A DNA stretch of 32,000 nucleotides from Candidatus Methanoperedens sp. (lineage in GTDB: Archaea > Halobacteriota > Methanosarcinia > Methanosarcinales > Methanoperedenaceae), in contig JAPZAR010000024.1 in the NCBI GenBank assembly GCA_027460535.1, positions 30,001 to 62,000 of the forward strand, written 5' to 3'. Shown here piece by piece: positions 9,657 through 32,000 of this stretch. Under the pieces are notes generated by a model. The model saw only the letters and a list, made by a program, of their open reading frames with translations, was not told the DNA's origin and did not search any database. Numbering within the stretch: the stretch's first letter is position 1; each line of letters opens with the position of its first letter. The position numbers and the translations under genes were made by a program.

Positions 9657-9690
9657 TGCCTGTACTTGAATTGCATTCTATTTATAATCA

Positions 9691-9776
9691 TTGCTGATGC
9701 TTCGGGCCCAGTGCTGCTGCTGCCGATGAAAAGGGTTAAGGAAGGGACGAGGGTTGGGTGATTTTTTACGACTTTG
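9691..9776. repeat. Direct repeat copy B: diverged duplicate of the metG 3' end
   Basis: It keeps the frame and the stop: ADASGPVLLLPMKRVKEGTRVG* versus met[24 protein letters not shown]. It also keeps the T-tract (six T). The offset from copy A is 716 nt. Confidence 0.8.
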
Positions 9777-9780
9777 CCAA

Positions 9781-9840
9781 TTGTCTCAAAAATACTTTCA
9801 TTTTTCGTTTCATATTGTGACTAAAATTCCATTGAGACAA
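9781..9840. repeat. 9-bp perfect inverted repeat (TTGTCTCAA ... TTGAGACAA) around a 42-nt AT-rich spacer
   Basis: The arms are at 9781-9789 and 9832-9840, starting 4 nt after repeat copy B. The flanking CC...GG residues extend the symmetry imperfectly. Confidence 0.5.
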
Positions 9841-9914
9841 CGGTTAACGAAGCGGTTTAAATGAAAAAACAGATAAATATATAAATATTTGTTACCATTT
9901 AGAATAAATATTAA

Positions 9915-10472
9915 TTTGCATATATAAACAATGGAAAAGAAAAAGATAGACCGTGGTATAAAGATATTTCATTAGTTATAGCCGTTATTTCATTAGTTAT
10001 ATCCGATATTCTTGCAGTAAATGAATTAAAACCCTTTGAACTCAATGTTTATGCTAACGGGGTATATGTTACTCCTAATTCTAAGGGTGAAACAGATATT
10101 TTAAATTTGATTGTCCCAATCGAATTCGTAAATAGAGGAAGTAAAGCCGGAGTTATTGATGAAGTATATCTAATTGTGAATTATCAAAACATGAATATAA
10201 AATATGAACCTCTGGTGGAATTAGATTTATCTGATTTACTAAAATATCGACAGTAAAATGTGAATTATGTTGCAACGACGCCATACTTACCTTTTTTATT
10301 AGAAGGTAATACAGAAAAGAGCAAAACCATTTTATTTTTTTCAGAGTCTGGCGTATCAACTATGAAAATTCTCCCTGGCAACTACACTATAAACATTTAT
10401 ATTAAGACTCAAAATGATAACAAAGCAATCAATATGGGAACAATTAGTATTTTTATAGATACGATACCATAA
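9915..10472 (+). pseudogene. Decayed gene for a small TM-anchored beta-rich protein (start out of frame, in-frame TAA)
   Basis: One frame is open from 9915 to 10472 except for a TAA at 10254-10256. It reads ...PWYKDISLVIAVISLVISDILAVNELKPFELNVYANGVY...LLKYRQ*NVNYVATTPYLPFLLEGNTEKSK...ISIFIDTIP. The only plausible ATG (9931, MEKKKIDRGIKIFH*) is in another frame. There is also an in-frame 21-nt duplication (16-nt cores at 9965-9980 and 9986-10001). Confidence 0.45.
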
Positions 10473-10701
10473 TTAAACATCAAAAACAATATATTACTTA
10501 TATTTTAAATAATAATCGTTGGATTTTTAACATGGCACCTCCAAACACAAGTTAATTTTTGACTAATCGCCATGTTTTTCTCTATCATCCCTATCTATTA
10601 TTTTATTCAAGATTTTAATCCGTCCGGCGACTTATGCAAATTTTTCTATATTTTCTTGCCTCATTTTGCCGACAAAGCCAAACAACGAATAAACGATAGA
10701 G

Positions 10702-10851
10702 CCCCTCACACACCCCCGTGCCAATGCCCCACCGATTCAGAGCTGAGCGACAATTAATCCAAAACAAACCTCTTCGCTCACAAATAGGGGATAGAACAAT
10801 CCTATCATCTCCTCGGATAGCAAAAGGGGGCAATCAGAAACATCGGAGGGG
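10702..10851. ncRNA. Candidate structured RNA or element of unknown class (GC-rich island in AT-rich spacer)
   Basis: Nested complementarity: CCCCTC 10702-10707 with GAGGGG 10846-10851; CCCCC 10713-10717 with GGGGG 10826-10830; TGAGCGA 10744-10750 with TCGCTCA 10774-10780; CTATC 10802-10806 can pair with either GATAG 10790-10794 or GATAG 10816-10820. The overlapping ORFs on both strands have non-protein-like composition. The strand is undetermined. Confidence 0.25.
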
Positions 10852-10969
10852 ATGGATGCGATGCCGAATGCCCCAACGATAATATAATTGTCTTTGCTTA
10901 TAAATATTTTCTACATTGTCATGATCTCTTTTGCATACTTATAAATTATTTCACATTATAGGGATTTGT

Positions 10970-11593
10970 ATGCAGGTTATTAAACTAAACAATTCTCCCT
11001 ACGATGCGAACGCGTACCTGGTGGATGGAACAATACTTATTGATGCGGGCATGGATTCCGGATCGATAATCGCCCAGCTTGGAAAATATATTGGACCTGA
11101 AGAACTTGAGACTATTATTCTCACACACTGCCATTATGACCATTCCGCTGGAGCAAAAGGTGTCGCCGAAGCAACAGGCGCGAAAATTGCCATCCACAGG
11201 GACGATGCCCCGCTCCTTAACAGCCCACGTTCCAGCGCTTCAGACCTCTTTGGTATGAGACCCCCGGAAATTACCCCCGATATCCTTCTGGAGGGAGGCG
11301 AGGTCTTTGGAGAACTTGAGGTGCTCCATACTCCCGGGCACACCCCGGGTGGCATATGCCTCTACAGCGCCGTCTCAAAAATACTTTTTTCAGGAGACAC
11401 CGTATTCCAGGACGGGGGCTTCGGACGCACCGACCTGCACGGTGGAAATACACAACAGTTGATCGAATCAATAAGAAAGCTTACCCACCTTGATGTCAGC
11501 ATTATGTATCCCGGGCATGGTGATACTGTGATGAAAGATGCTAATGAACAGATAGGATTGTCTTTGATCATGGCCGAACAGTACTCAGATTAG
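10970..11593 (+). CDS. Metallo-beta-lactamase-fold hydrolase (glyoxalase II-like)
   Basis: ATG 10970 gives MQVIKLNNSPYDANAYLV. Metal-binding motifs are present: LTHCHYDHSAGA (HxHxDH), HTPGHTPG and GDTVF...GR.D. The length is about 207 aa. Confidence 0.8.
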   Translation: MQVIKLNNSPYDANAYLVDGTILIDAGMDSGSIIAQLGKYIGPEELETIILTHCHYDHSAGAKGVAEATGAKIAIHRDDAPLLNSPRSSASDLFGMRPPEITPDILLEGGEVFGELEVLHTPGHTPGGICLYSAVSKILFSGDTVFQDGGFGRTDLHGGNTQQLIESIRKLTHLDVSIMYPGHGDTVMKDANEQIGLSLIMAEQYSD

Positions 11594-20691: not shown

Positions 20692-21295
20692 TTTTGGGGC
20701 GCGCACAAAGGAAGCACGGGAGATCAGTGAAAAGAGTAGGGCGATAGTTCGCAGCATCGTGAAAGGTGATATGCCGGAGGACAGGATAAGGCAGCGCTGT
20801 GTGATGGCTACGGGTGACCCTGCGTTTGCTGACCTGATGAGATTCAATAATACGCCTGTGGAAGCCGGAATCAAAGCCGTCAGGAAAGGCGCAACGATAT
20901 TCACGGATATAAAAATGGCTCAGGTAGGGATAACGAAAAGGGGACACAAATGCGATGTGAGATGCGTGCTCGAGGCAGGGGAGGAGATAGCCGGGAAAAC
21001 TGGCGTTACAAGGACATCGGCAGGGTTCATGGCGCTTGAAAAAGAGCTTGAAGGTGCCATAATCGTAATCGGTAATGCACCATCGGCTGCACTCACAGTG
21101 TGCGGGATGATAGAACGCGGGCTCCGACCGGCGCTGCTTGTGGCCACGCCAGTGGGATTCGTGAATGCTGCCGAGTCAAAGGAGCGCGTGAGGGAGCTTG
21201 ATGTGCCTTCCATCACCTGCGTGGGTACACGCGGCGGGACGCCTGTGGCGGTTGCTGTGGTCAATGAGCTGGTGGAGATGGCTGAGCACCATTAA
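20681..21295 (+). CDS. cbiC: Cobalt-precorrin-8 methylmutase CbiC
   Basis: 204 aa with the blocks ATGDPAFADL, IVIGNAPSAAL, ATPVGFVNAAESKE and GTRGGTPVAVAVVNEL. It overlaps the end of cbiH by 11 nt. Confidence 0.85.
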   Translation: MSTDFGARTKEAREISEKSRAIVRSIVKGDMPEDRIRQRCVMATGDPAFADLMRFNNTPVEAGIKAVRKGATIFTDIKMAQVGITKRGHKCDVRCVLEAGEEIAGKTGVTRTSAGFMALEKELEGAIIVIGNAPSAALTVCGMIERGLRPALLVATPVGFVNAAESKERVRELDVPSITCVGTRGGTPVAVAVVNELVEMAEHH

Positions 21296-21372
21296 TGCAT
21301 TGAAATCTTATTAAGATAAGAAGACTTATATACAAACAAAGCTTGGATAATAATCCTTGGGTTAAAAGAGGG

Positions 21373-23061
21373 ATGCTAATGAATTTTTGTCCAAACTGCG
21401 GTGGAAAAATAGAAATAGAAAACGCAAAATTCTGCCCTAATTGCGGGTTTAATTTTCAAGAAAAAAAGACAAGTGAAGAATCCAAAATTCAAATAGAACC
21501 TGAAAATACTAACAAAGAGCAGAAGCTTTCACCTCCACAAGTGGTAAATGAAGAGGAAACTGAAGAGTCTGAGTATACTGCTAAAAATGCATATGCTTTA
21601 GGATTTAAATTTGAGGATACTGTTGAGGAAATTTTAAAGGCTAAAGGATACTTTACGCAACGAAGGCTTAGATTAGAAGGTCAAAAGGGAAAGTCTGAAA
21701 TCGATATTCTTGCCGTTAAAAAGTATAAGGGAATAGAGAAGAAGATCGCAGTTGAATGCAAGAACTACACAAATTCGGTTCCTGTCAAGGACGTTAGAGA
21801 CTTTGTTTCAAAATTGGAAGACCTTCGGATTCGAAACGGTCTTTTTGTAGCATACAGCGATTTTTCGAGCGAGGCTGAGTCGTGGGGTGAAAATGCATGT
21901 TTGGAATTATGGGATGGCGATACAGTATATGAGAAATTTTATGAACTCAGCGTCGGAAGGCTCAATGTGGGAGATAAAGTAGACTTCAAATATTACTTAC
22001 CAGTCAAAATTGACTATAATTATGCAGCAAATCTTGATTTTGAGAATAAGAACAAAGTTGAAATTTCCAGCGCCAAGTTAATATGGAGACCTTTTTATAA
22101 AGTTTATTATGAACTCAACTCCGTTCAGACAGACCCGATTAAGAGAAAACATAGACTGACAGATTCAGGATTCTTTATTGAGGATGCTTTGATAAAAAGC
22201 CCCCAAAAACCTAAAGACATGGTAACTAATGCTGTGAAATCGGTAACTCTCGGTTTTCTCGGCAAATCTGCTGAGGAAAAGAAAGAAGAAAAAGAAACAG
22301 GTGTTCTTAAAAAAGAACTCGGCCAGAATCCAGAAAGAGATCTATCTATAACTCAGCCAGACAATTATAAAGTAATCAAGCTCTCTCCACAGATAACCGA
22401 AGTTGTTGCCAGAGGAGAAACAATCGACTATGTTGTGCAAGAAAATACGAAAACTGTAGAGTATGAAGTTCCCACAAAAAAGAAAAAACGAAAGGATGAG
22501 GACGAGATAGACTTTGAGATGCCTGATATAAGGGAATGTTCTCTAAAACCTTCGCGGAAAGACGTCACCATTAACGACATTCAGCTTATTCATGTGCCAA
22601 AATGGGAAGTAGAATTTGAAAGCGGGGATTACACTTATACAAGGGTCATTTCTGCCAATGGTGGAACAGTTATTGCAGACAATATAACAAATTGTAATAA
22701 ACACTTACTCAAGGACTTTATAAAAAAGAAAAATGTGGCCGTCTGTGATGTATGTGGGAAAGCTCTCTGTAAAGATCACGTCTTCAAATGTCCGACTTGC
22801 GGCTCCTGGTTCTGTGAAAACCATAGTATTCAATGCATCGGATGCAAAATTAGATTTTGCACAGAACATATTAAGAACAAATGTGTAGAATGCGGAGAAG
22901 CTATTTGTGATAGCTGTTTGCTGAAATGTCCTTTATGTGGAGAAAATCATTGCAATAAGCATATGACAAAATGCGACAAATGTGGTAAAGTCGTCTGCAC
23001 ATCCTGTACACGAAAAGAAGGTAGTTTAATTTTTAAGAAAACCATATGTAAAAACTGCTAG
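21373..23061 (+). CDS. Multidomain protein: N-terminal double zinc ribbon, Mrr-like PD-(D/E)xK nuclease domain, unassigned middle region of about 270 aa, C-terminal array of six zinc knuckles
   Basis: The track ORF 21343 starts at a TTG. ATG 21373 follows a TATA-like CTTATATAC at about 21325-21333. The zinc ribbon is FCPNCGGKIEIENAKFCPNCG. The Mrr_cat-like core is FEDTVEEILKAKGYFTQ...GKSEIDILAV...KIAVECKNYTNSVPVKDVRDFVSKL. The tail (nt 22744-23058, 105 aa, 22 Cys) has units with a 15-16 residue period: CDVCGKALCKDH / CPTCGSWFCENH / CIGCKIRFCTEH / CVECGEAICDSC / CPLCGENHCNKH / CDKCGKVVCTSC. Confidence 0.7.
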   Translation: MLMNFCPNCGGKIEIENAKFCPNCGFNFQEKKTSEESKIQIEPENTNKEQKLSPPQVVNEEETEESEYTAKNAYALGFKFEDTVEEILKAKGYFTQRRLRLEGQKGKSEIDILAVKKYKGIEKKIAVECKNYTNSVPVKDVRDFVSKLEDLRIRNGLFVAYSDFSSEAESWGENACLELWDGDTVYEKFYELSVGRLNVGDKVDFKYYLPVKIDYNYAANLDFENKNKVEISSAKLIWRPFYKVYYELNSVQTDPIKRKHRLTDSGFFIEDALIKSPQKPKDMVTNAVKSVTLGFLGKSAEEKKEEKETGVLKKELGQNPERDLSITQPDNYKVIKLSPQITEVVARGETIDYVVQENTKTVEYEVPTKKKKRKDEDEIDFEMPDIRECSLKPSRKDVTINDIQLIHVPKWEVEFESGDYTYTRVISANGGTVIADNITNCNKHLLKDFIKKKNVAVCDVCGKALCKDHVFKCPTCGSWFCENHSIQCIGCKIRFCTEHIKNKCVECGEAICDSCLLKCPLCGENHCNKHMTKCDKCGKVVCTSCTRKEGSLIFKKTICKNC

Positions 23062-23080
23062 TTAAATTAAGGTAATTCAA

Positions 23081-23521
23081 ATGAAAACCGAACTCATCCC
23101 GGAACTAACAGCCGTACTTAAACAAAAGTTTAGCCAAGATCTCATTTCAATTGTTTTATTTGGTTCCATAGTCAAGGGCACCTTTACAAGTACTTCTGAT
23201 ATAGATGTTCTCGTCGTTTGCGAAGCTCCCATCAAAGATTGGAGAGCTCGTGATAAAATGATTCTGGAACTCACAGAAGAAATCGAATTAAAATATGCTA
23301 CTCCAATTCATATGACTCTTATGGGCAGAGATGAGATATCACGGGCAATCGATTCGGTTTATCCATTAATGCTTGAAATTTATGACGCCAATGAAATTGT
23401 TTATGATGAAAATAACTTCTTTGGACGATTACTGAAATATTTTGAAGAAAATATTCAACGCTTGCATGCAAAAAAAATCGAAGAAGGTGTCTGGAAAATC
23501 CCTGGTTTGGCGGTGATATAA
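23081..23521 (+). CDS. Minimal nucleotidyltransferase (MNT, pol-beta superfamily), putative antitoxin of module 1
   Basis: 146 aa. IVLFGSIVKGTFTSTSDIDVLVV is the GS...DxD NTase signature. It is immediately followed, after a 1-nt gap, by the HEPN ORF. Confidence 0.8.
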   Translation: MKTELIPELTAVLKQKFSQDLISIVLFGSIVKGTFTSTSDIDVLVVCEAPIKDWRARDKMILELTEEIELKYATPIHMTLMGRDEISRAIDSVYPLMLEIYDANEIVYDENNFFGRLLKYFEENIQRLHAKKIEEGVWKIPGLAVI

Positions 23522-23522
23522 A

Positions 23523-23816
23523 GTGGTTGATGTGAAACAAATTTTTGATGCATTGATGATTGAAGCCCAATCCGACATAAGGTCTGCAAAATTGCTGCTG
23601 GATGGAACCGAATTCAGCAGGTCGATCTATCATTCGCAACAAGCGGTTGAAAAAGCTATGAAAGCCTGCCTTGTTTTAACCGGGATTGTAATAACCGATG
23701 ATCATTGGATTTCTGATAGATTTATTCAAGCCTTTCCTGCGATGCCTGATATACGAAATTTAATACGCGATACAAAATATTTAGTTCGTGGTATCAAGAA
23801 CCCCACCGCCTTTTAA
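23523..23816 (+). pseudogene. HEPN-domain gene, 5' part, interrupted by the IS200-type element
   Basis: GTG 23523. SRSIYHSQQAVEKAMKACLVLTG...DDHWISDRF is the N-terminal two-thirds of a HEPN fold. The frame runs into the IS left-end hairpin and stops at 23814-23816 before any R-Y-P motif. Confidence 0.7.
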
Positions 23817-23823
23817 GGCGGGG
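23801..23823 (+). other. IS left-end imperfect hairpin
   Basis: CCCCACCGCC TTTTAA GGCGGGG. CCGCC pairs with GGCGG, and 2 further G-C pairs form across a bulged A. It lies about 120 nt upstream of the tnpA start. Confidence 0.55.
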
Positions 23824-23946
23824 ATGAATTGGTACCATCGTTTTTTCAATAGTACTCCGTAATTAGGATACGAGAGGATATGCAACTGTCCTCCCGCAAA
23901 CAAATTTTCGGGTAGCGTGAAGCTTCTCGAATACTGGAGGTATTCA

Positions 23947-24456
23947 ATGGAATTCGATAGGTATAGCCATAGCCTTGGCGAGAGTAACTACCATTTCCAG
24001 TTCACGCCGAAATACCGACGTGATGTATTTAGGGATGTTATCCTTAAAAAGGCTTGTGAGGAATCTTTCCTCAGAATCGCCGTGAAATACAAAATAATCG
24101 TTCGTGCTCTGGAATTCGGCCCAGATCACGTTCATCTTTTTGTTGGCAATTGTAAGAAATATAGTGTTCCGCAGATTGCCCAATATTTCAAGGGAGCAAG
24201 CTCAAGGGAGCTTCGTGAACAATATTGGGAGCATGTTAGAATAAAAGAATATGGTGACTCTTTCTGGAGCGATGGTTATTTTTACGAATCAGTTGGCAGG
24301 GTAACAAGTGAATCTGTGGAGTACTATATAAATCGACAGCAAGGGAAACACTGGGCAAACATAGACTATGAGGTATACAGGAAATTTCCGTCGCAGAAAA
24401 CAATAAACGACTTTTTCATAGGAACCCCAGACAACCATAAACGCTCAGGGCTTTAG
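23947..24456 (+). CDS. tnpA: IS200-like Y1 (HUH) transposase TnpA
   Basis: ATG 23947 lies 6 nt after GGAGGT. MEFDRYSHSLGESNYHFQFTPKYRR, the HUH motif in GPDHVHLFV, and the catalytic-Tyr region SVEYYINRQQ are present. Confidence 0.85.
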   Translation: MEFDRYSHSLGESNYHFQFTPKYRRDVFRDVILKKACEESFLRIAVKYKIIVRALEFGPDHVHLFVGNCKKYSVPQIAQYFKGASSRELREQYWEHVRIKEYGDSFWSDGYFYESVGRVTSESVEYYINRQQGKHWANIDYEVYRKFPSQKTINDFFIGTPDNHKRSGL

Positions 24457-24463
24457 CCCTGAG
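24444..24463 (+). other. IS right-end perfect hairpin
   Basis: CTCAGGGC TTTA GCCCTGAG: an 8-bp stem with a 4-nt loop, overlapping the tnpA stop codon. Confidence 0.65.
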
Positions 24464-24485
24464 TAGTTTACAGAGACAGGCAACA

Positions 24486-24653
24486 AAATCAAGGTACCCG
24501 TTGTTTTCCAGTGCAGAGAGACCGATATGGATTCCTTCACGAGAATATTCTAAGCAGGATGCAGATGATGCTTACAGGAAAGCGGACAATATTTTGGAAT
24601 CTATAAGAAAATTTTTAAAAGAGAAATATAGCATTGGTATGGATTACTTATGA
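24486..24653 (+). pseudogene. HEPN-domain gene, 3' part (downstream of the IS)
   Basis: The frame reads KSRYPLFSSAERPIWIPSREYSKQDADDAYRKADNILESIRKFLKEKYSIGMDYL*. The (E)SRYP motif and C-terminal helix are typical of HEPN. It has no start of its own, and its stop overlaps the next ATG (ATGA). Confidence 0.65.
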
Positions 24654-24967
24654 ATCAAACCCCACCGGCGCAGATTTATGAAAAAAGCCTGGAGCAGGTA
24701 AAAGTAGCAGTGCTTGATGCCTTCGAAAGAGAAGATGTCACAATTCTTCTCTTTGGCTCAAGAGTAAGGGGAGACTCGGAAAGGTGCTCGGACATAGACA
24801 TAGGAATATTGCCAAAGAATAAATATGACCGGAAAAAATTGATCCTCTTAAAAGAAAAACTTGAGGATATGAACATTCCTTATAAAGTCGATGTGATAGA
24901 TATATCTAAAGTTTCACAAGCATTCAGGGAAAAAGTGATGATAGAGGGGAAGATATGGAAAAACTGA
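24650..24967 (+). CDS. Minimal nucleotidyltransferase (MNT), module 2
   Basis: 105 aa. ILLFGSRVRGDSERCSDIDIGILP is the GS...DxD signature. Confidence 0.8.
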   Translation: MNQTPPAQIYEKSLEQVKVAVLDAFEREDVTILLFGSRVRGDSERCSDIDIGILPKNKYDRKKLILLKEKLEDMNIPYKVDVIDISKVSQAFREKVMIEGKIWKN

Positions 24968-28846: not shown

Positions 28847-29079
28847 TACCTGACCTCCCTTGATACAGTCTATGTCGATGGTTCTATTAATCTCTTTTGT
28901 GTCCCGAAAAAACCTATGTGCAAATTGAATGGGGGACATAAGCATTATCGTGCACCGTGCTCGGATAGATATCCAAAATTATCCATGAAAACCAGGAAAT
29001 CGACCGATTAGTTTCACCCCGTTTACATCAAATATATCTGCAGAAAATACTTTTTCTATACCTAAGGAGCGTGAGATTT

Positions 29080-29304
29080 ATGGAATTAATCATCAAAAGT
29101 GCAGGAATCGAAAGGAATGGTATATACATGCAGGATGTTCAAGGGCAATTCTTCATAAGAGAGTCAGGGGGAATAGATTACAGCTCTGCTATCGTGCTGC
29201 TGCGAAACCTTGGAGAAAGGAAGGAAATCACGTCAATGGAAAGGGATGCTTTGTCTGTGGCTCTCCGATCTCTCCAGCGCGCTGCCACAAAATCAACATC
29301 ATAA
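29080..29304 (+). CDS. Hypothetical small protein
   Basis: ATG 29080 lies 10 nt after AAGGAG. The 74-aa product (MELIIKSAGIERNGIYMQDVQGQFFIRESGG...) matches no family I recognise. Confidence 0.4.
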   Translation: MELIIKSAGIERNGIYMQDVQGQFFIRESGGIDYSSAIVLLRNLGERKEITSMERDALSVALRSLQRAATKSTS

Positions 29305-29754
29305 CTGCCATCGCTTTTAGACGCATTGATCATGAAATGAAGAGTGCAAAGAAATTAAAAGTTTGGATTATTGAAATCCCTGGAGTTGCACACTTTCGAA
29401 GAAATGGTGTGGAGAGTGCCATGTAAAAGCGCTGTGTGCAGGCCTCGTACATGGTATAGGGTTTGTGACTGCAGGCGATGGGTGTTTCGTGCTTCCGTTA
29501 TACATATTGAACATGAATAACAATTGTGGCGCCAAAATTAGGGCACAAATAGAATTATAATAATGGGGAAATAGAGGCTGGTCATTCTATATAAAATGAA
29601 TTTATAGCCTCTAATACCCTTAGTGGGTTTAATCACTATGTCAATCGATCCTGCATAGAGCATGAACTCCAAATAAGAGTATGAAAAAATTTAATACTGG
29701 TGAAACTTATTTATATAATAATGATTATATGATACGTGTGAGACGGATTCGAAA

Positions 29755-29941
29755 ATGAGAAAATTGTTCAAAATATTTGGAGCTCGACATGGGAATCTCT
29801 AAGAAATACGATGGGACTGGCCTTGTGATTTCAAAGTATCTGGTTAAGATTTACGTATGTAGAATCACTACAGAGAGCAAGTTTGGTGAAGGCAGTACCT
29901 TTACGTTTTTATTGCCGTTAAAGCAAAGAAGGGGGATTTAG
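29755..29941 (+). pseudogene. Decayed C-terminal remnant of a histidine kinase (HATPase_c G2 box region)
   Basis: The frame ending at TAG 29939-29941 reads KKYDGTGLVISKYLVKIYVCRITTESKFGEGSTFTFLLPLKQRRGI*. Compare the canonical GTGLGLaISk.lve.mgG.I.veSe.G.GStF.f.lP; here the second GL and the GG are lost. The upstream part (MRKLFKIFGARHGNL*) is in another frame, and no sensor or DHp region is present. Confidence 0.6.
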
Positions 29942-29944
29942 GTT

Positions 29945-31006
29945 ATGAAAGTGCTCGTGGTTGAGTATAACCCAGACAATATGAAACTGGCGCTTGAAAT
30001 ACTGAATGCGCAGGGCTATACAGCTCACGGAGTTGTAGATGGAGAGGCGGCAATCAAGGCGGCAGAAATAGAAGTTTATGATTTGATACTGATGGATATA
30101 GCGCTGCCTGGTATTGATGGCTTTGATGCTACAAAAATAATCAAAAGCAAGCCTCAGTACAAAGATGTAGCAGTGATAGCATTAACGGCATATCCTCTCA
30201 AAGAGAATAAAAAAAGGTTACTCGAAGCAGGTTTTGTTGATTATTTATCAAAACCAATTGATGTAGTTGCGTTCATGAAAATGATGGGGAAATACAGAAT
30301 AAAATGGTATGAAAAAATACGACCATCTATAAAAATGAAAGAATGGATTAAGCCCACGGGTTTAAACGTGCTGGATAATATGATGGATGGGGGGCTTTTT
30401 TCAGGTTCCCTGGTGTATATACTGTCTGACCCGCAGATCGATTCAGAGATTTTTTTATTTCACTTTACTCAACCCAGAAAGTGCTTTTACATCGTCACTG
30501 AGAGAGAATCCAAGTACGTCATTCAAGAAATAGAAAAACTCGGTTTTGATATCTCAAATATTGAGTTTATAGATATTTTCAGCGTTCATCATTCTTATTT
30601 GGTAAACGAAACTGACCACAAGTCACTGGAATTTGTGAAAAGCAAGTTGCAGGGTATAAAAGAAAAAGATTTAACAATAATTATAGACACTTTTAATTTT
30701 TTCCCACTCTTGAATGAAGGAAGGGACAGTATAAAGGAATTTGTGAATTTTCTTTATAACTTTGCCAAAAATAATGATGCCATAATTTACCTGCTTTCAT
30801 TGAGGAATACGATTGATAGCAAGATCGAGAATGAAATCATGTGGCAATGTGATGTTATTTTTGATATAAGTTGTGTGAGGGATCCGGATAAAATAATAAA
30901 TGAACTTAGGATAACTAAAGCTAAGAATATCAACGCGGCAACCGATACCATCAAGTTTTTCATCAAGGGAAAAGTACTAATAGATTCTTCGAAGGAGATT
31001 GTTTAG
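29945..31006 (+). CDS. Response-regulator receiver domain fused to a KaiC/RecA-like domain that lacks the Walker A P-loop
   Basis: The REC domain covers aa 1-118 (VLVVEYNPDN, DLILMDIALPGIDG with Asp51, VIALTAY, LSKP). The C-terminal region TGLNVLDNMMDGGLFSGSLVYILSDPQIDSEIFLFHF...LTIIIDTFN...ELRITKAKN follows the KaiC-like template (GI.gLD..lgGGlp.Gs..li.G.pGtGKT...vviDS...l.i.K.R). SDPQIDSE stands where GxxGxGKT is expected. Confidence 0.7.
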   Translation: MKVLVVEYNPDNMKLALEILNAQGYTAHGVVDGEAAIKAAEIEVYDLILMDIALPGIDGFDATKIIKSKPQYKDVAVIALTAYPLKENKKRLLEAGFVDYLSKPIDVVAFMKMMGKYRIKWYEKIRPSIKMKEWIKPTGLNVLDNMMDGGLFSGSLVYILSDPQIDSEIFLFHFTQPRKCFYIVTERESKYVIQEIEKLGFDISNIEFIDIFSVHHSYLVNETDHKSLEFVKSKLQGIKEKDLTIIIDTFNFFPLLNEGRDSIKEFVNFLYNFAKNNDAIIYLLSLRNTIDSKIENEIMWQCDVIFDISCVRDPDKIINELRITKAKNINAATDTIKFFIKGKVLIDSSKEIV

Positions 31007-31281
31007 AAACTGAAAATCAGCGCACCTGAAAATTTTGAATCATTTCTATAAATCGAATTGTTTCATCCAATTTTTTTAAACATTTTCTTTCAGCATGCGA
31101 AAATAAATCAAGAATTGCTGCACTCGATCATTCCACCAAAATCCACGCTAATAATAAAATATCCATTTTCCCATTTTTTCAGGATAATCTTAAATATAAA
31201 AACTAAGGTAATATGAGGCTCTGTTGTTCTTAAAAAGCTGGTAATAATCCATGTTTTCATTTAAAATGTGAAGGTATTCTG

Positions 31282-32000
31282 ATGGTGGTTCATACCTATT
31301 TGTTCTTTGGACTTGTAATCTTTTATCTGATCGGGGCTGTACTATCTGTTATATTAAACAGGAAGGACCGACTGGTCACGTATGCTTCATTCTTGAGCGC
31401 AGCCCTGGCATCGCTGCTGGGAATAGGTTTTTCATTCTTCGTTCTCTTCGGTGAGACCTTTACTTTCGCTTTGCCTGGCCCGACTTTCTTGAATTTCAGC
31501 GTTTTTGTGGATAAGCTGTCTGCATTTTTCATACTCGTAATTTCGATCGTGGCTTTTGCAGTCTCAATATACTCTCTGGGGTACGTTCGCGAATATTTCG
31601 GGAGAAAGAATATCGGCTACCTTTGTTTCCTGTATAACATATTCATCCTTTCAATGATCCTGGTGGTCTCCTCCAGCAACACACTGATGTTCCTGATCGT
31701 CTGGGAATTGATGTCACTTGTTTCGTATTTCCTGGTGATATACGAGCATGAAGAAGCCGAGATAAGAAAAGCAGGCTTCATCTATATCGTGATGACGCAT
31801 ATCGGGACGGGATTCATCCTCATATCGCTTCTTATCCTGGCAAGCTCAAGCGGCAGTCTCGATTTCGGGACATTCCGTGGCCTGACAATGTCACCTTTTC
31901 TCAAGGATATAGCATTCCTGTTCGCCCTGATAGGCTTCGGGACAAAGGCGGGGATCGTCCCGCTGCATATATGGCTGCCTTATGCCCATCCTGCCGCGCC
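31282..32000 (+). CDS. HyfB-like proton-pumping membrane subunit (complex I NuoL/M/N - Mrp antiporter family), N-terminal part; continues beyond the window
   Basis: Missing from the ORF track because it has no stop in the window. ATG 31282 gives MVVHTYLFFGLVIFYLIGAVLSV... The blocks VDKLSAFFILVISIVAFAVSIYSLGYVREY, SSGSLDFGTFR and GIVPLHIWLPYAHPAA closely parallel E. coli HyfB as I recall it (MDSLSAFMVLVISLL...SLYSLTYMREY, ESGSLDFASFR, PLHSWLPRAHPAA). Confidence 0.8.
   Translation, partial: MVVHTYLFFGLVIFYLIGAVLSVILNRKDRLVTYASFLSAALASLLGIGFSFFVLFGETFTFALPGPTFLNFSVFVDKLSAFFILVISIVAFAVSIYSLGYVREYFGRKNIGYLCFLYNIFILSMILVVSSSNTLMFLIVWELMSLVSYFLVIYEHEEAEIRKAGFIYIVMTHIGTGFILISLLILASSSGSLDFGTFRGLTMSPFLKDIAFLFALIGFGTKAGIVPLHIWLPYAHPAA

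Follow-up and report, generated by a model that had tools for sequence, protein, structure and literature searches.

The locus examined here raises one question: what is done by a gene whose product joins a well-understood nuclease to a long C-terminal part of unfamiliar sequence? The gene occupies positions 21379..23061 on the forward (+) strand of a 32,000-nucleotide stretch of Candidatus Methanoperedens DNA, the whole of which is referred to as the window. It encodes 560 residues and a stop codon, as indicated by the list of open reading frames (ORFs), by an identical public protein, and by an alignment of homologues that starts at MNFCP. All coordinates are window positions, and residue numbers are counted from the ATG at 21379. 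Methanoperedens carries large extrachromosomal elements and has a role in methane oxidation, and the antiviral immunity of archaea is far less charted than that of bacteria. The four parts that had been read from the sequence alone, namely a zinc ribbon, an acidic linker with a nuclease, an unassigned core, and a Cys-rich tail, are all present in the 560 residues. What is probably new is a widespread conserved module combined with swappable effectors; in this gene, it would serve for recognition in a nuclease of defence that stands alone.

Architecture of the protein

Residues ~191-438 have no match in Pfam even at E <= 10. A model of residues 192-560 predicted separately is confidently folded, with a predicted local distance difference test score (pLDDT) of 87.6 and a predicted template modelling score (pTM) of 0.76. 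Compared with the Protein Data Bank (PDB) by Foldseek, this model gave nothing significant, the best match (E 0.09) covering the tail only, and the profile of the module found nothing below E 0.3 among PDB sequences. The BFVD fold search with residues 192-560 returned only matches of low TM score to uncharacterised Cys-rich viral proteins. By Pfam profile search and by structure prediction with fold search, core and tail are both without a significant match. The sequence-only reading had left about 270 residues unassigned, and this stands for Pfam and the PDB; these residues are not an isolated domain but, together with the first zinc ligands, make up a single conserved module.

The core of this module appears to consist of two half-domains and a two-zinc knot. 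The first half (residues 191-274, 21949..22200, +) contains a strand, a short helix, and a very long beta-hairpin, is modelled at pLDDT >90, and is basic, with an isoelectric point (pI) of 9.1. Its conserved residues are R194, L207-P208, N223, P238, D252, D262, and G264. A Lys/Glu-rich loop (residues 275-304, 22201..22290, +), which is disordered (pLDDT <50) and variable in length in the alignment, leads to the second half (residues 305-438, 22291..22692, +). There, helices, strands, a Lys-rich loop at 364-383, and a long hairpin are found, with N356, Y362, P391, P407-x-W409, Y420, and D434 conserved. Across the 93 relatives described in the next section, N223, L234, P238, P407, C439, C456, and C459 are near-invariant. 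A ligand pocket may lie between the half-domains, for which R194, N223, D252, D262, N356, Y362, W409, Y420, and D434 would be candidates. The two halves are weakly similar to each other (hhalign E 0.034, with the motifs in matching register), the alignment pairing LIWRPFYKVYYEL with LIHVPKWEVEFES and DSGFFIEDAL with ANGGTVIADNI. An ancient internal duplication is a plausible origin of the two halves. A likeness of the unit to a PepSY-like alpha+beta fold was considered; Pfam gave no PepSY match, and the likeness is not claimed.

The zinc region (residues 439-560, 22693..23058, +) comprises the core ligands, an array of six units, and the terminal pair C557-x2-C560. From C456 to C560 exactly 105 residues hold 22 Cys, as had been counted in the sequence, arranged as six units at a period of 15-16 residues and terminated by C557-K-N-C560. 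The units have the form C-x2-C-x4-C-x2-[HC] and start at 456, 471, 486, 502, 517, and 532. This Cys-rich tail cannot be attributed to chance, because the remaining 455 residues hold only 8 Cys. The six-knuckle array is present as described; what has to be amended is its extent and its generality. Two further putative zinc ligands, C439 and H442, join the set to give 28 ligand positions, which would suffice for 7 predicted Zn sites. All 28 positions are conserved in 28 long-tail homologues, and the region models at pLDDT ~95. Nearly every relative retains the predicted ligands C439, H442, C456, C459, C464, H467, C494, and H497. Because short relatives stop after this minimal eight-ligand set, including the equivalents of C494 and H497, the long knuckle array is read as a subfamily-specific expansion of the two-zinc core. 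A permissive pattern applied to 124 family members counts between 0 and 13 knuckle units in a protein, with peaks at 0-1 and 6-7. The tail of the query is basic (pI 8.8) and has no tandem repeat at the DNA level. One relative, P0175 (574 residues), has a 174-residue tail with 30 Cys and ~13 knuckle units.

At the other end of the protein, the N-terminal double CxxC ribbon (residues 1-27, 21379..21459, +) was correctly recognised from the sequence. Its four Cys, in the arrangement C4-x2-C7 ... C19-x2-C22, are at least 90% conserved in the homologue alignment. The match of the ribbon to Pfam Zn_Ribbon_1 (E 0.0015) is under the Pfam cut-off, and the same family is found at E <= 1e-3 in 28 of the 93 relatives. 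The following linker (residues 28-66, 21460..21576, +) is acidic (pI 4.4), varies in length and sequence across homologues, and is disordered, the AlphaFold2 pLDDT being <50 for residues 29-69.

The nuclease itself (residues 67-190, 21577..21948, +) matches Mrr_cat (PF04471) over residues 76-183 with E 6.4e-19 and 68.6 bits against a cut-off of 21, spanning profile positions 7-111 of 115. Among 34 homologues, the proposed catalytic residues E79, E107-I-D109, and E126-C-K128 either do not vary or reach a conservation of at least 90%. Foldseek comparison of the full-length AlphaFold2 model (pLDDT 81.9, pTM 0.72, with pLDDT ~90 in the nuclease region) with the PDB gave significant matches on the nuclease domain only. 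The top match is AF1548 (1y88; E 2.3e-6, probability 1.00), followed by MspJI (E 5e-4), AspBHI (3e-3), Cdn1, Can2, and EcoT38I, and the nuclease domains of R2, Avs4, and Cap4 are also among the fold matches. AF1548 is also matched by the family profile (E 3.5e-7), and in that alignment its EID and ECK motifs fall in register. The Mrr-like PD-(D/E)xK core suspected from the sequence is thereby established: by profile score, catalytic motif, and an alpha/beta restriction-endonuclease-like fold, the protein belongs to the Mrr_cat superfamily. Since the catalytic motifs are retained and a secondary match to NA-iREase1 (PF22722; E 1.1e-5, 25.8 bits) falls under the cut-off of 27, the identity with NA-iREase1 was rejected and the nuclease is predicted to be catalytically competent. 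Single-sequence searches of tail and nuclease against PDB sequences returned compositional Cys/His matches or designed repeat proteins and were rejected as uninformative.

Exchangeable effectors and the proposed function

The nature of the module becomes clearer from its relatives. A module profile (residues 186-480) was searched against 1.84 billion representatives and found 360 at E <= 1e-3, including 88 with E below 1e-30. Pfam scans of 93 of these 360 relatives gave the domains upstream of the module. A nuclease head is present in 76 of the 93 (Mrr_cat in 64, NERD in 9, PLDc_2 in 2, and HNH in 1), a caspase-like Peptidase_C14 domain in one, and a HerA ATPase in one. Most of these heads are enzymes that work on DNA. 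In the remainder, which are proteins of ~300 residues, a zinc ribbon alone or nothing recognisable stands before the module. The HNH versions P0025 and P0188 are 40-43% identical to the query over the module. An architecture in which the C-terminal part stays constant while the enzymatic heads at the N-terminus are exchanged is what would be expected of a targeting or sensor module, and because the heads are exchangeable, the module is regarded as such and not as the accessory of one enzyme. A fusion with AA_permease (P0114) was disregarded, being probably a fragment or an error of gene calling. In P0144 (1070 residues), ~630 unassigned residues precede the Mrr_cat domain and the module.

The clearest defence signal is given by the nuclease-less module proteins, which are placed in defence islands. 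On two independent contigs, such a gene begins 16 nucleotides after the gene of a 1711-residue DUF4011-helicase-REase-SLFN_AlbA_2 protein. This helicase-nuclease matches the PADLOC models PDC-S37 (2e-180) and Hhe (5e-88), and a Type I restriction-modification system and an ASCH gene adjoin its gene. A third module-only protein adjoins a DUF4011 helicase and HsdM, and a fourth type is found directly downstream of small SLFN_AlbA_2 proteins. A module-only protein and its upstream SLFN_AlbA_2 or helicase-nuclease partner may form a two-gene system. Adjacency of the module, with or without a nuclease, to SLFN_AlbA_2 or to Hhe/PDC-S37-type DUF4011 helicase-nucleases recurs on contigs L027/L028 (1850-7885), L029 (2415-5930), L030 (3364-4839), L031 (2239-3618), and L006 (5364-8159).

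Defence contexts in the whole set are found in the window and on L006, L007, L023, and L027-L031. SLFN_AlbA_2 and a second Mrr_cat lie near one homologue, an OLD/GajA-like ATPase, a caspase, and a patatin near one, and an AriA/NsnB-like ATPase near one. PADLOC matches to DndA/SspA and pVip among the neighbours were rejected as defence evidence; they are read as cysteine-desulfurase and generic radical-SAM proteins because the same ORF set yields the class-V aminotransferase and radical-SAM Pfam families.

The distribution of the family is patchy. Only 35 close clusters were found among 5.8 billion, and the 13 homologues in species-representative genomes are all archaeal, spanning Methanoperedens, Syntrophoarchaeum, Bathyarchaeia, Thermoplasmatota, Methanomassiliicoccales, and Methanocellales; thaumarchaeal (Nitrososphaerales) homologues were also found. 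The closest genomic relative, from Candidatus Methanoperedens nitroreducens, has 79% protein identity. Nucleotide homology to that species and to two other loci starts at 21378 and ends at 23057-23062, so that the gene alone is common to these Methanoperedens loci. Their flanks are unrelated, and in one case the gene stands beside an RNA-polymerase/S7/S12 operon. It can be seen that the gene travels from genome to genome by itself. In homologue P0019, additional double zinc ribbons stand at the N-terminus. This homologue lies on L004 (JGI 3300047202, a 107-kb contig), which looks bacterial by the neighbouring genes for an NAD-dependent DNA ligase, a GerE-type response regulator, and a HisKA_3 kinase; this hints at an inter-domain transfer of the family.

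Taken together, these observations are consistent with a stand-alone, horizontally mobile archaeal defence nuclease that is independent of a methyltransferase (Type IV-like) and carries a new module for recognising foreign nucleic acid, a reading whose chances are judged about even. We infer the defence role, DNA as the ligand, a licensing mechanism, and oligomerisation. In such a protein, the ribbon and the flexible acidic linker would lead into the Mrr-type PD-(D/E)xK domain, which would supply non-specific DNA cleavage. The C-terminal 370 residues would be the targeting or sensor module, made of two probably related alpha/beta half-domains capped by the two-zinc knot, and in the subfamily of the query the knot may be extended to a rigid basic rod with ~7 zinc sites. 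This module would recognise a feature of invading nucleic acid, probably modified or structurally unusual DNA, and upon recognition would position or license the nuclease. The zinc rod and the first half, both basic, are candidate nucleic-acid contacts. Enzymes of the MspJI and Mrr types have one active site per PD-(D/E)xK domain, and their double-strand cleavage needs self-association. Because a single PD-(D/E)xK site cuts one strand only, the nuclease would probably self-associate for double-strand cutting. DNA is favoured as the ligand because most relatives carry a nuclease head and because module-only proteins adjoin helicase-nucleases and restriction-modification systems.

The defence hypothesis had already been put forward from the sequence, and it gains circumstantial support from the exchange of effectors, the mobility of the single gene, and the location of nuclease-less versions in defence islands. 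Several observations weigh against it or against DNA as the target. Many full-length homologues stand among metabolic genes, and most of the 135 ORFs that flank the homologues at the 13 genome loci belong to ordinary metabolism or to translation, only a few matching PIN, AbiEi, or HamB-like proteins. Defence-island enrichment for the full-length form is therefore mixed and modest, and the neighbour evidence from module-only proteins amounts to three independent contexts. By Pfam, PDB fold, and PDB profile comparison, the module has no likeness to the modified-DNA readers SRA, PUA/EVE/ASCH, and winged helix. If the module did nothing but target DNA, its fusion to a caspase-like protease would be hard to explain; this fusion speaks for a role as sensor or switch. 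The search of IMG/VR viral contigs gave at most nuclease-domain matches and no module homologue, which is neutral in this regard.

A more far-reaching proposal is offered only tentatively. The tandem alpha/beta module of 250 residues with its two-zinc knot may be a new, Archaea-centred immune recognition domain at the level of fold. It would work in cis with four nuclease superfamilies, a caspase-like protease, and HerA, and possibly in trans with Hhe-type helicase-nucleases and Schlafen-AlbA2 proteins, while the rod of 0 to ~13 knuckles would serve as an adjustable element for recognition or spacing.

The main rival to DNA targeting is an abortive-infection sensor-effector, in which the module would respond to a viral protein or some other sign of infection and, acting as a switch, unleash the effector indiscriminately on host and viral DNA, following the logic of Avs/STAND proteins without an NTPase. 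The wiring of one module to such chemically unrelated effectors as a caspase-like protease and a HerA ATPase is typical of sensors with swappable effectors, the position of module-only proteins right behind effector-bearing defence proteins is compatible with sensing in trans, and a knuckle number of 0 to ~13 is as would be seen for a diversifying recognition surface. However, the protease and ATPase fusions are single cases against 76 nuclease-bearing relatives out of 93, the protein is without an NTPase or an oligomerisation switch domain, and no viral trigger is known. This explanation is considered unlikely on balance, and those that follow are much less likely.

A housekeeping nuclease of DNA repair or recombination, whose zinc-rich C-terminus would read DNA structures in the manner of a Holliday-junction or flap-type resolvase, is very improbable. 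Many homologues are indeed flanked by housekeeping genes, one adjoins an Exo5-family gene, and one bears the JGI name 'Holliday junction resolvase-like predicted endonuclease', but this name reflects only the Mrr_cat/PD-(D/E)xK domain. The phyletic spread is patchy and the homologues are few, the location varies even among Methanoperedens species with homology confined to the gene, no conserved operon exists, and the nuclease is swapped for HNH, PLD, or NERD, with a caspase fusion besides. Hardly more credit, and if anything slightly less, is given to a selfish single-gene cassette, that is, a free-standing homing-type or addiction endonuclease of no benefit to the host. The gene-only homology, which begins and ends within 1-2 bases of the coding sequence between unrelated flanks, would suit such a cassette, as would insertions next to operons of high conservation, namely cbi and that of RNA polymerase with S7/S12; but homing endonucleases do not normally swap their nuclease for a caspase or HerA domain, and Mrr_cat, NERD, and PLD effectors together with module-only versions in defence islands fit immunity better. 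That the nuclease is catalytically dead and NA-iREase1-like, the protein being a DNA-binding regulator or scaffold, deserves almost no weight, for although the secondary Pfam match exists and PF22722 appears in the precomputed annotations of many homologues, the score is below its cut-off and far under the 68.6 bits of Mrr_cat, and E79, E107, D109, E126, and K128 are conserved and aligned with the active-site motifs of AF1548.

The gene, its start, and its surroundings

The gene is a single long ORF on the + strand (21343..23061 in the ORF list), which would give 572 residues if read from the TTG at 21343. Further in-frame starts are the ATG at 21373, giving 562 residues, and the ATG at 21379, giving 560. 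The start had been placed at 21373; the true start is most likely six bases further inside, at 21379. This start is preferred because the public protein P0001 and the homologues begin there and because a Shine-Dalgarno-like GAGGG (21368..21372, +) sits 6 nucleotides upstream. P0001 is identical in sequence, has 560 residues beginning with MNF, and is present on 6 contigs, and the homologues in the alignment open with M-x-F-C-P-x-C-G. A TTATATA sequence (21328..21334, +), ~45 nucleotides before the start codon, was found by eye and resembles an archaeal TATA box; by the archaeal consensus it may act as promoter. A sigma-70 and terminator scan of the window was uninformative, the host being an archaeon. 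In the ORF list, the antisense strand of the gene interval holds no ORF longer than 54 residues.

The gene comes after a cobalamin-biosynthesis operon, with two TP_methylase genes, cbiG, and cbiC, and opens a low-GC stretch in which GC (guanine plus cytosine) content drops from 0.48-0.50 to 0.36-0.42 over 21.5-25 kb. The AT-rich island with toxin-antitoxin modules and an insertion sequence (IS) that had been noted is real: it holds an MNT/HEPN pair, an IS200-type Y1 transposase, and a second nucleotidyltransferase. Beyond it, a radical-SAM CofH/MqnC-like gene lies on the other strand. GC content is also low at 9000-11000 (0.32-0.38) and 29000-31500 (0.34-0.39), compared with ~0.45-0.50 elsewhere, and these may be further islets of foreign or non-coding DNA. 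No tRNA gene marking an integration site was found in the window.

The MNT-type nucleotidyltransferase (23081..23521, +; Pfam NTP_transf_2 and Polbeta) begins 20 nucleotides past the stop codon. Its synteny with the gene is limited to L022-L024, from one related species, and does not extend to L009, L025, or L026. A 97-residue ORF (23523..23816, +; Pfam HEPN) represents the N-terminal part of the HEPN gene and matches residues 1-89 of an intact 147-residue homologue. The presumed HEPN toxin is probably inactivated in the window because its gene is interrupted by the IS. This IS200-type element splits the gene, with tnpA at 23917-24456 and the insertion at ~23781-24471, an interval without counterpart in the Methanoperedens contig L023. 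A 50-residue ORF at 24501-24653 matches residues 98-143 of the intact 147-residue HEPN protein of L023. The second nucleotidyltransferase (24650-24967; Polbeta/NTP_transf_2, 105 residues) is followed by no intact HEPN partner, and related contigs have an S-layer domain gene in its place.

A second Methanoperedens lineage has the same order of cbiC, the gene, MNT, and HEPN, with an extra DUF2283 pair before the gene and without the IS. This pair, a 104-residue protein and a DUF2283 protein, is located at 7319-7836 of L022 and 5406-5923 of L024 and is absent at 21279-21378 of the window. The spot downstream of the cbi operon thus suggests a small integration hotspot. Across the family loci examined, no neighbouring gene is conserved, and neither the gene in the window nor its homologues have a methyltransferase gene next to them.

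Significance and comparison with known systems

The importance of this locus lies in a compact single-gene system that joins a well-understood nuclease to a confidently folded domain absent from Pfam and the PDB. The module is reused with at least six effector types; if its target were known, the list of immune modules would gain a new domain for sensing or targeting. The public names of the homologues go no further than 'restriction endonuclease' or 'hypothetical protein', and several hundred protein clusters under such labels could then be annotated. The regular array of zinc knuckles of variable copy number is in itself an unusual structural element, which might act as a ruler, a DNA track, or a recognition surface.

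The full combination of parts had been thought to belong to no described family, and this has held: the protein has no match in NCBIfam, Pfam and PADLOC models match the nuclease part only and none spans the full-length architecture, and no description of the family was found within the literature searched. The catalytic residues of the nuclease are aligned with those of AF1548, and the neighbourhoods of the homologues show no conserved housekeeping context, the flanks differing from locus to locus. The sequence-only reading is supported on these points.

Among PADLOC models, the best match is PDC-S02 (1e-10), likewise a single-gene candidate with an Mrr-like nuclease. Only residues 46-190 of the query align (profile positions 175-319 of 346), and in contrast to the query, PDC-S02 has its nuclease at the C-terminus and is without module and zinc array. 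The PADLOC model mREase_IV matches at 3e-7 over residues 79-207 only, which corresponds to the C-terminal nuclease part of that profile. By these two models, 370 residues of the query are unmatched. AF1548 (PDB 1y88), the best match of the nuclease in both structure and sequence, is an archaeal Mrr-like protein of unassigned function, presumably of the COG1787 type; it has 199 residues, made up of the nuclease and a small extra domain, whereas the query adds the 250-residue module and the zinc array.

The tail resembles the CHY/CTCHY region of Pirh2/RCHY1 (2dkt) and the AN1, B-box, and FYVE cross-brace fingers in that its predicted Cys/His zinc sites follow one another closely on short beta-hairpin knuckles. 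All of these matches are below significance, and those domains do not have a six-fold unit of 15-16 residues with variable copy number. The top fold match of the tail is the CHY zinc finger of Pirh2 (E 0.09, probability 0.28), and its weak Pfam matches to DUF2180 (18.9 bits, cut-off 22.2), zf-AN1 (17.3, cut-off 27.9), and FYVE (15.5, cut-off 27.8) are under their cut-offs, as is a weak match to B-box.

In the combination of a conserved, presumably sensing part with alternative effectors, namely an Mrr-like nuclease, HNH, PLD, or a protease, the family resembles Avs/STAND proteins, Cap4 of CBASS, and the CRISPR-ancillary Can2/Cdn1. Unlike these, it has no STAND NTPase, SAVED, or CARF domain and no signal-producing cyclase nearby, and its presumed sensing part has a different, unassigned fold.

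Finally, the protein can be set beside the Type IV enzymes Mrr, MspJI, and AspBHI. Recognition in Mrr is by a winged helix and in MspJI and AspBHI by an SRA-like domain, whereas the query has a module without match in Pfam or the PDB and a rod of zinc knuckles; no recognised modified-DNA reader (winged helix, SRA-like, PUA/EVE/ASCH, or YTH) was found in residues 192-435 by Pfam at E <= 10 or by PDB fold (best E 0.09). The domain order is also reversed, the nuclease being N-terminal in the query. With these enzymes the protein nevertheless shares a matching nuclease fold and the same overall plan, that is, a single polypeptide without cognate methyltransferase in which a non-specific Mrr_cat/PD-(D/E)xK nuclease is joined to a separate recognition domain, a putative one in the query.

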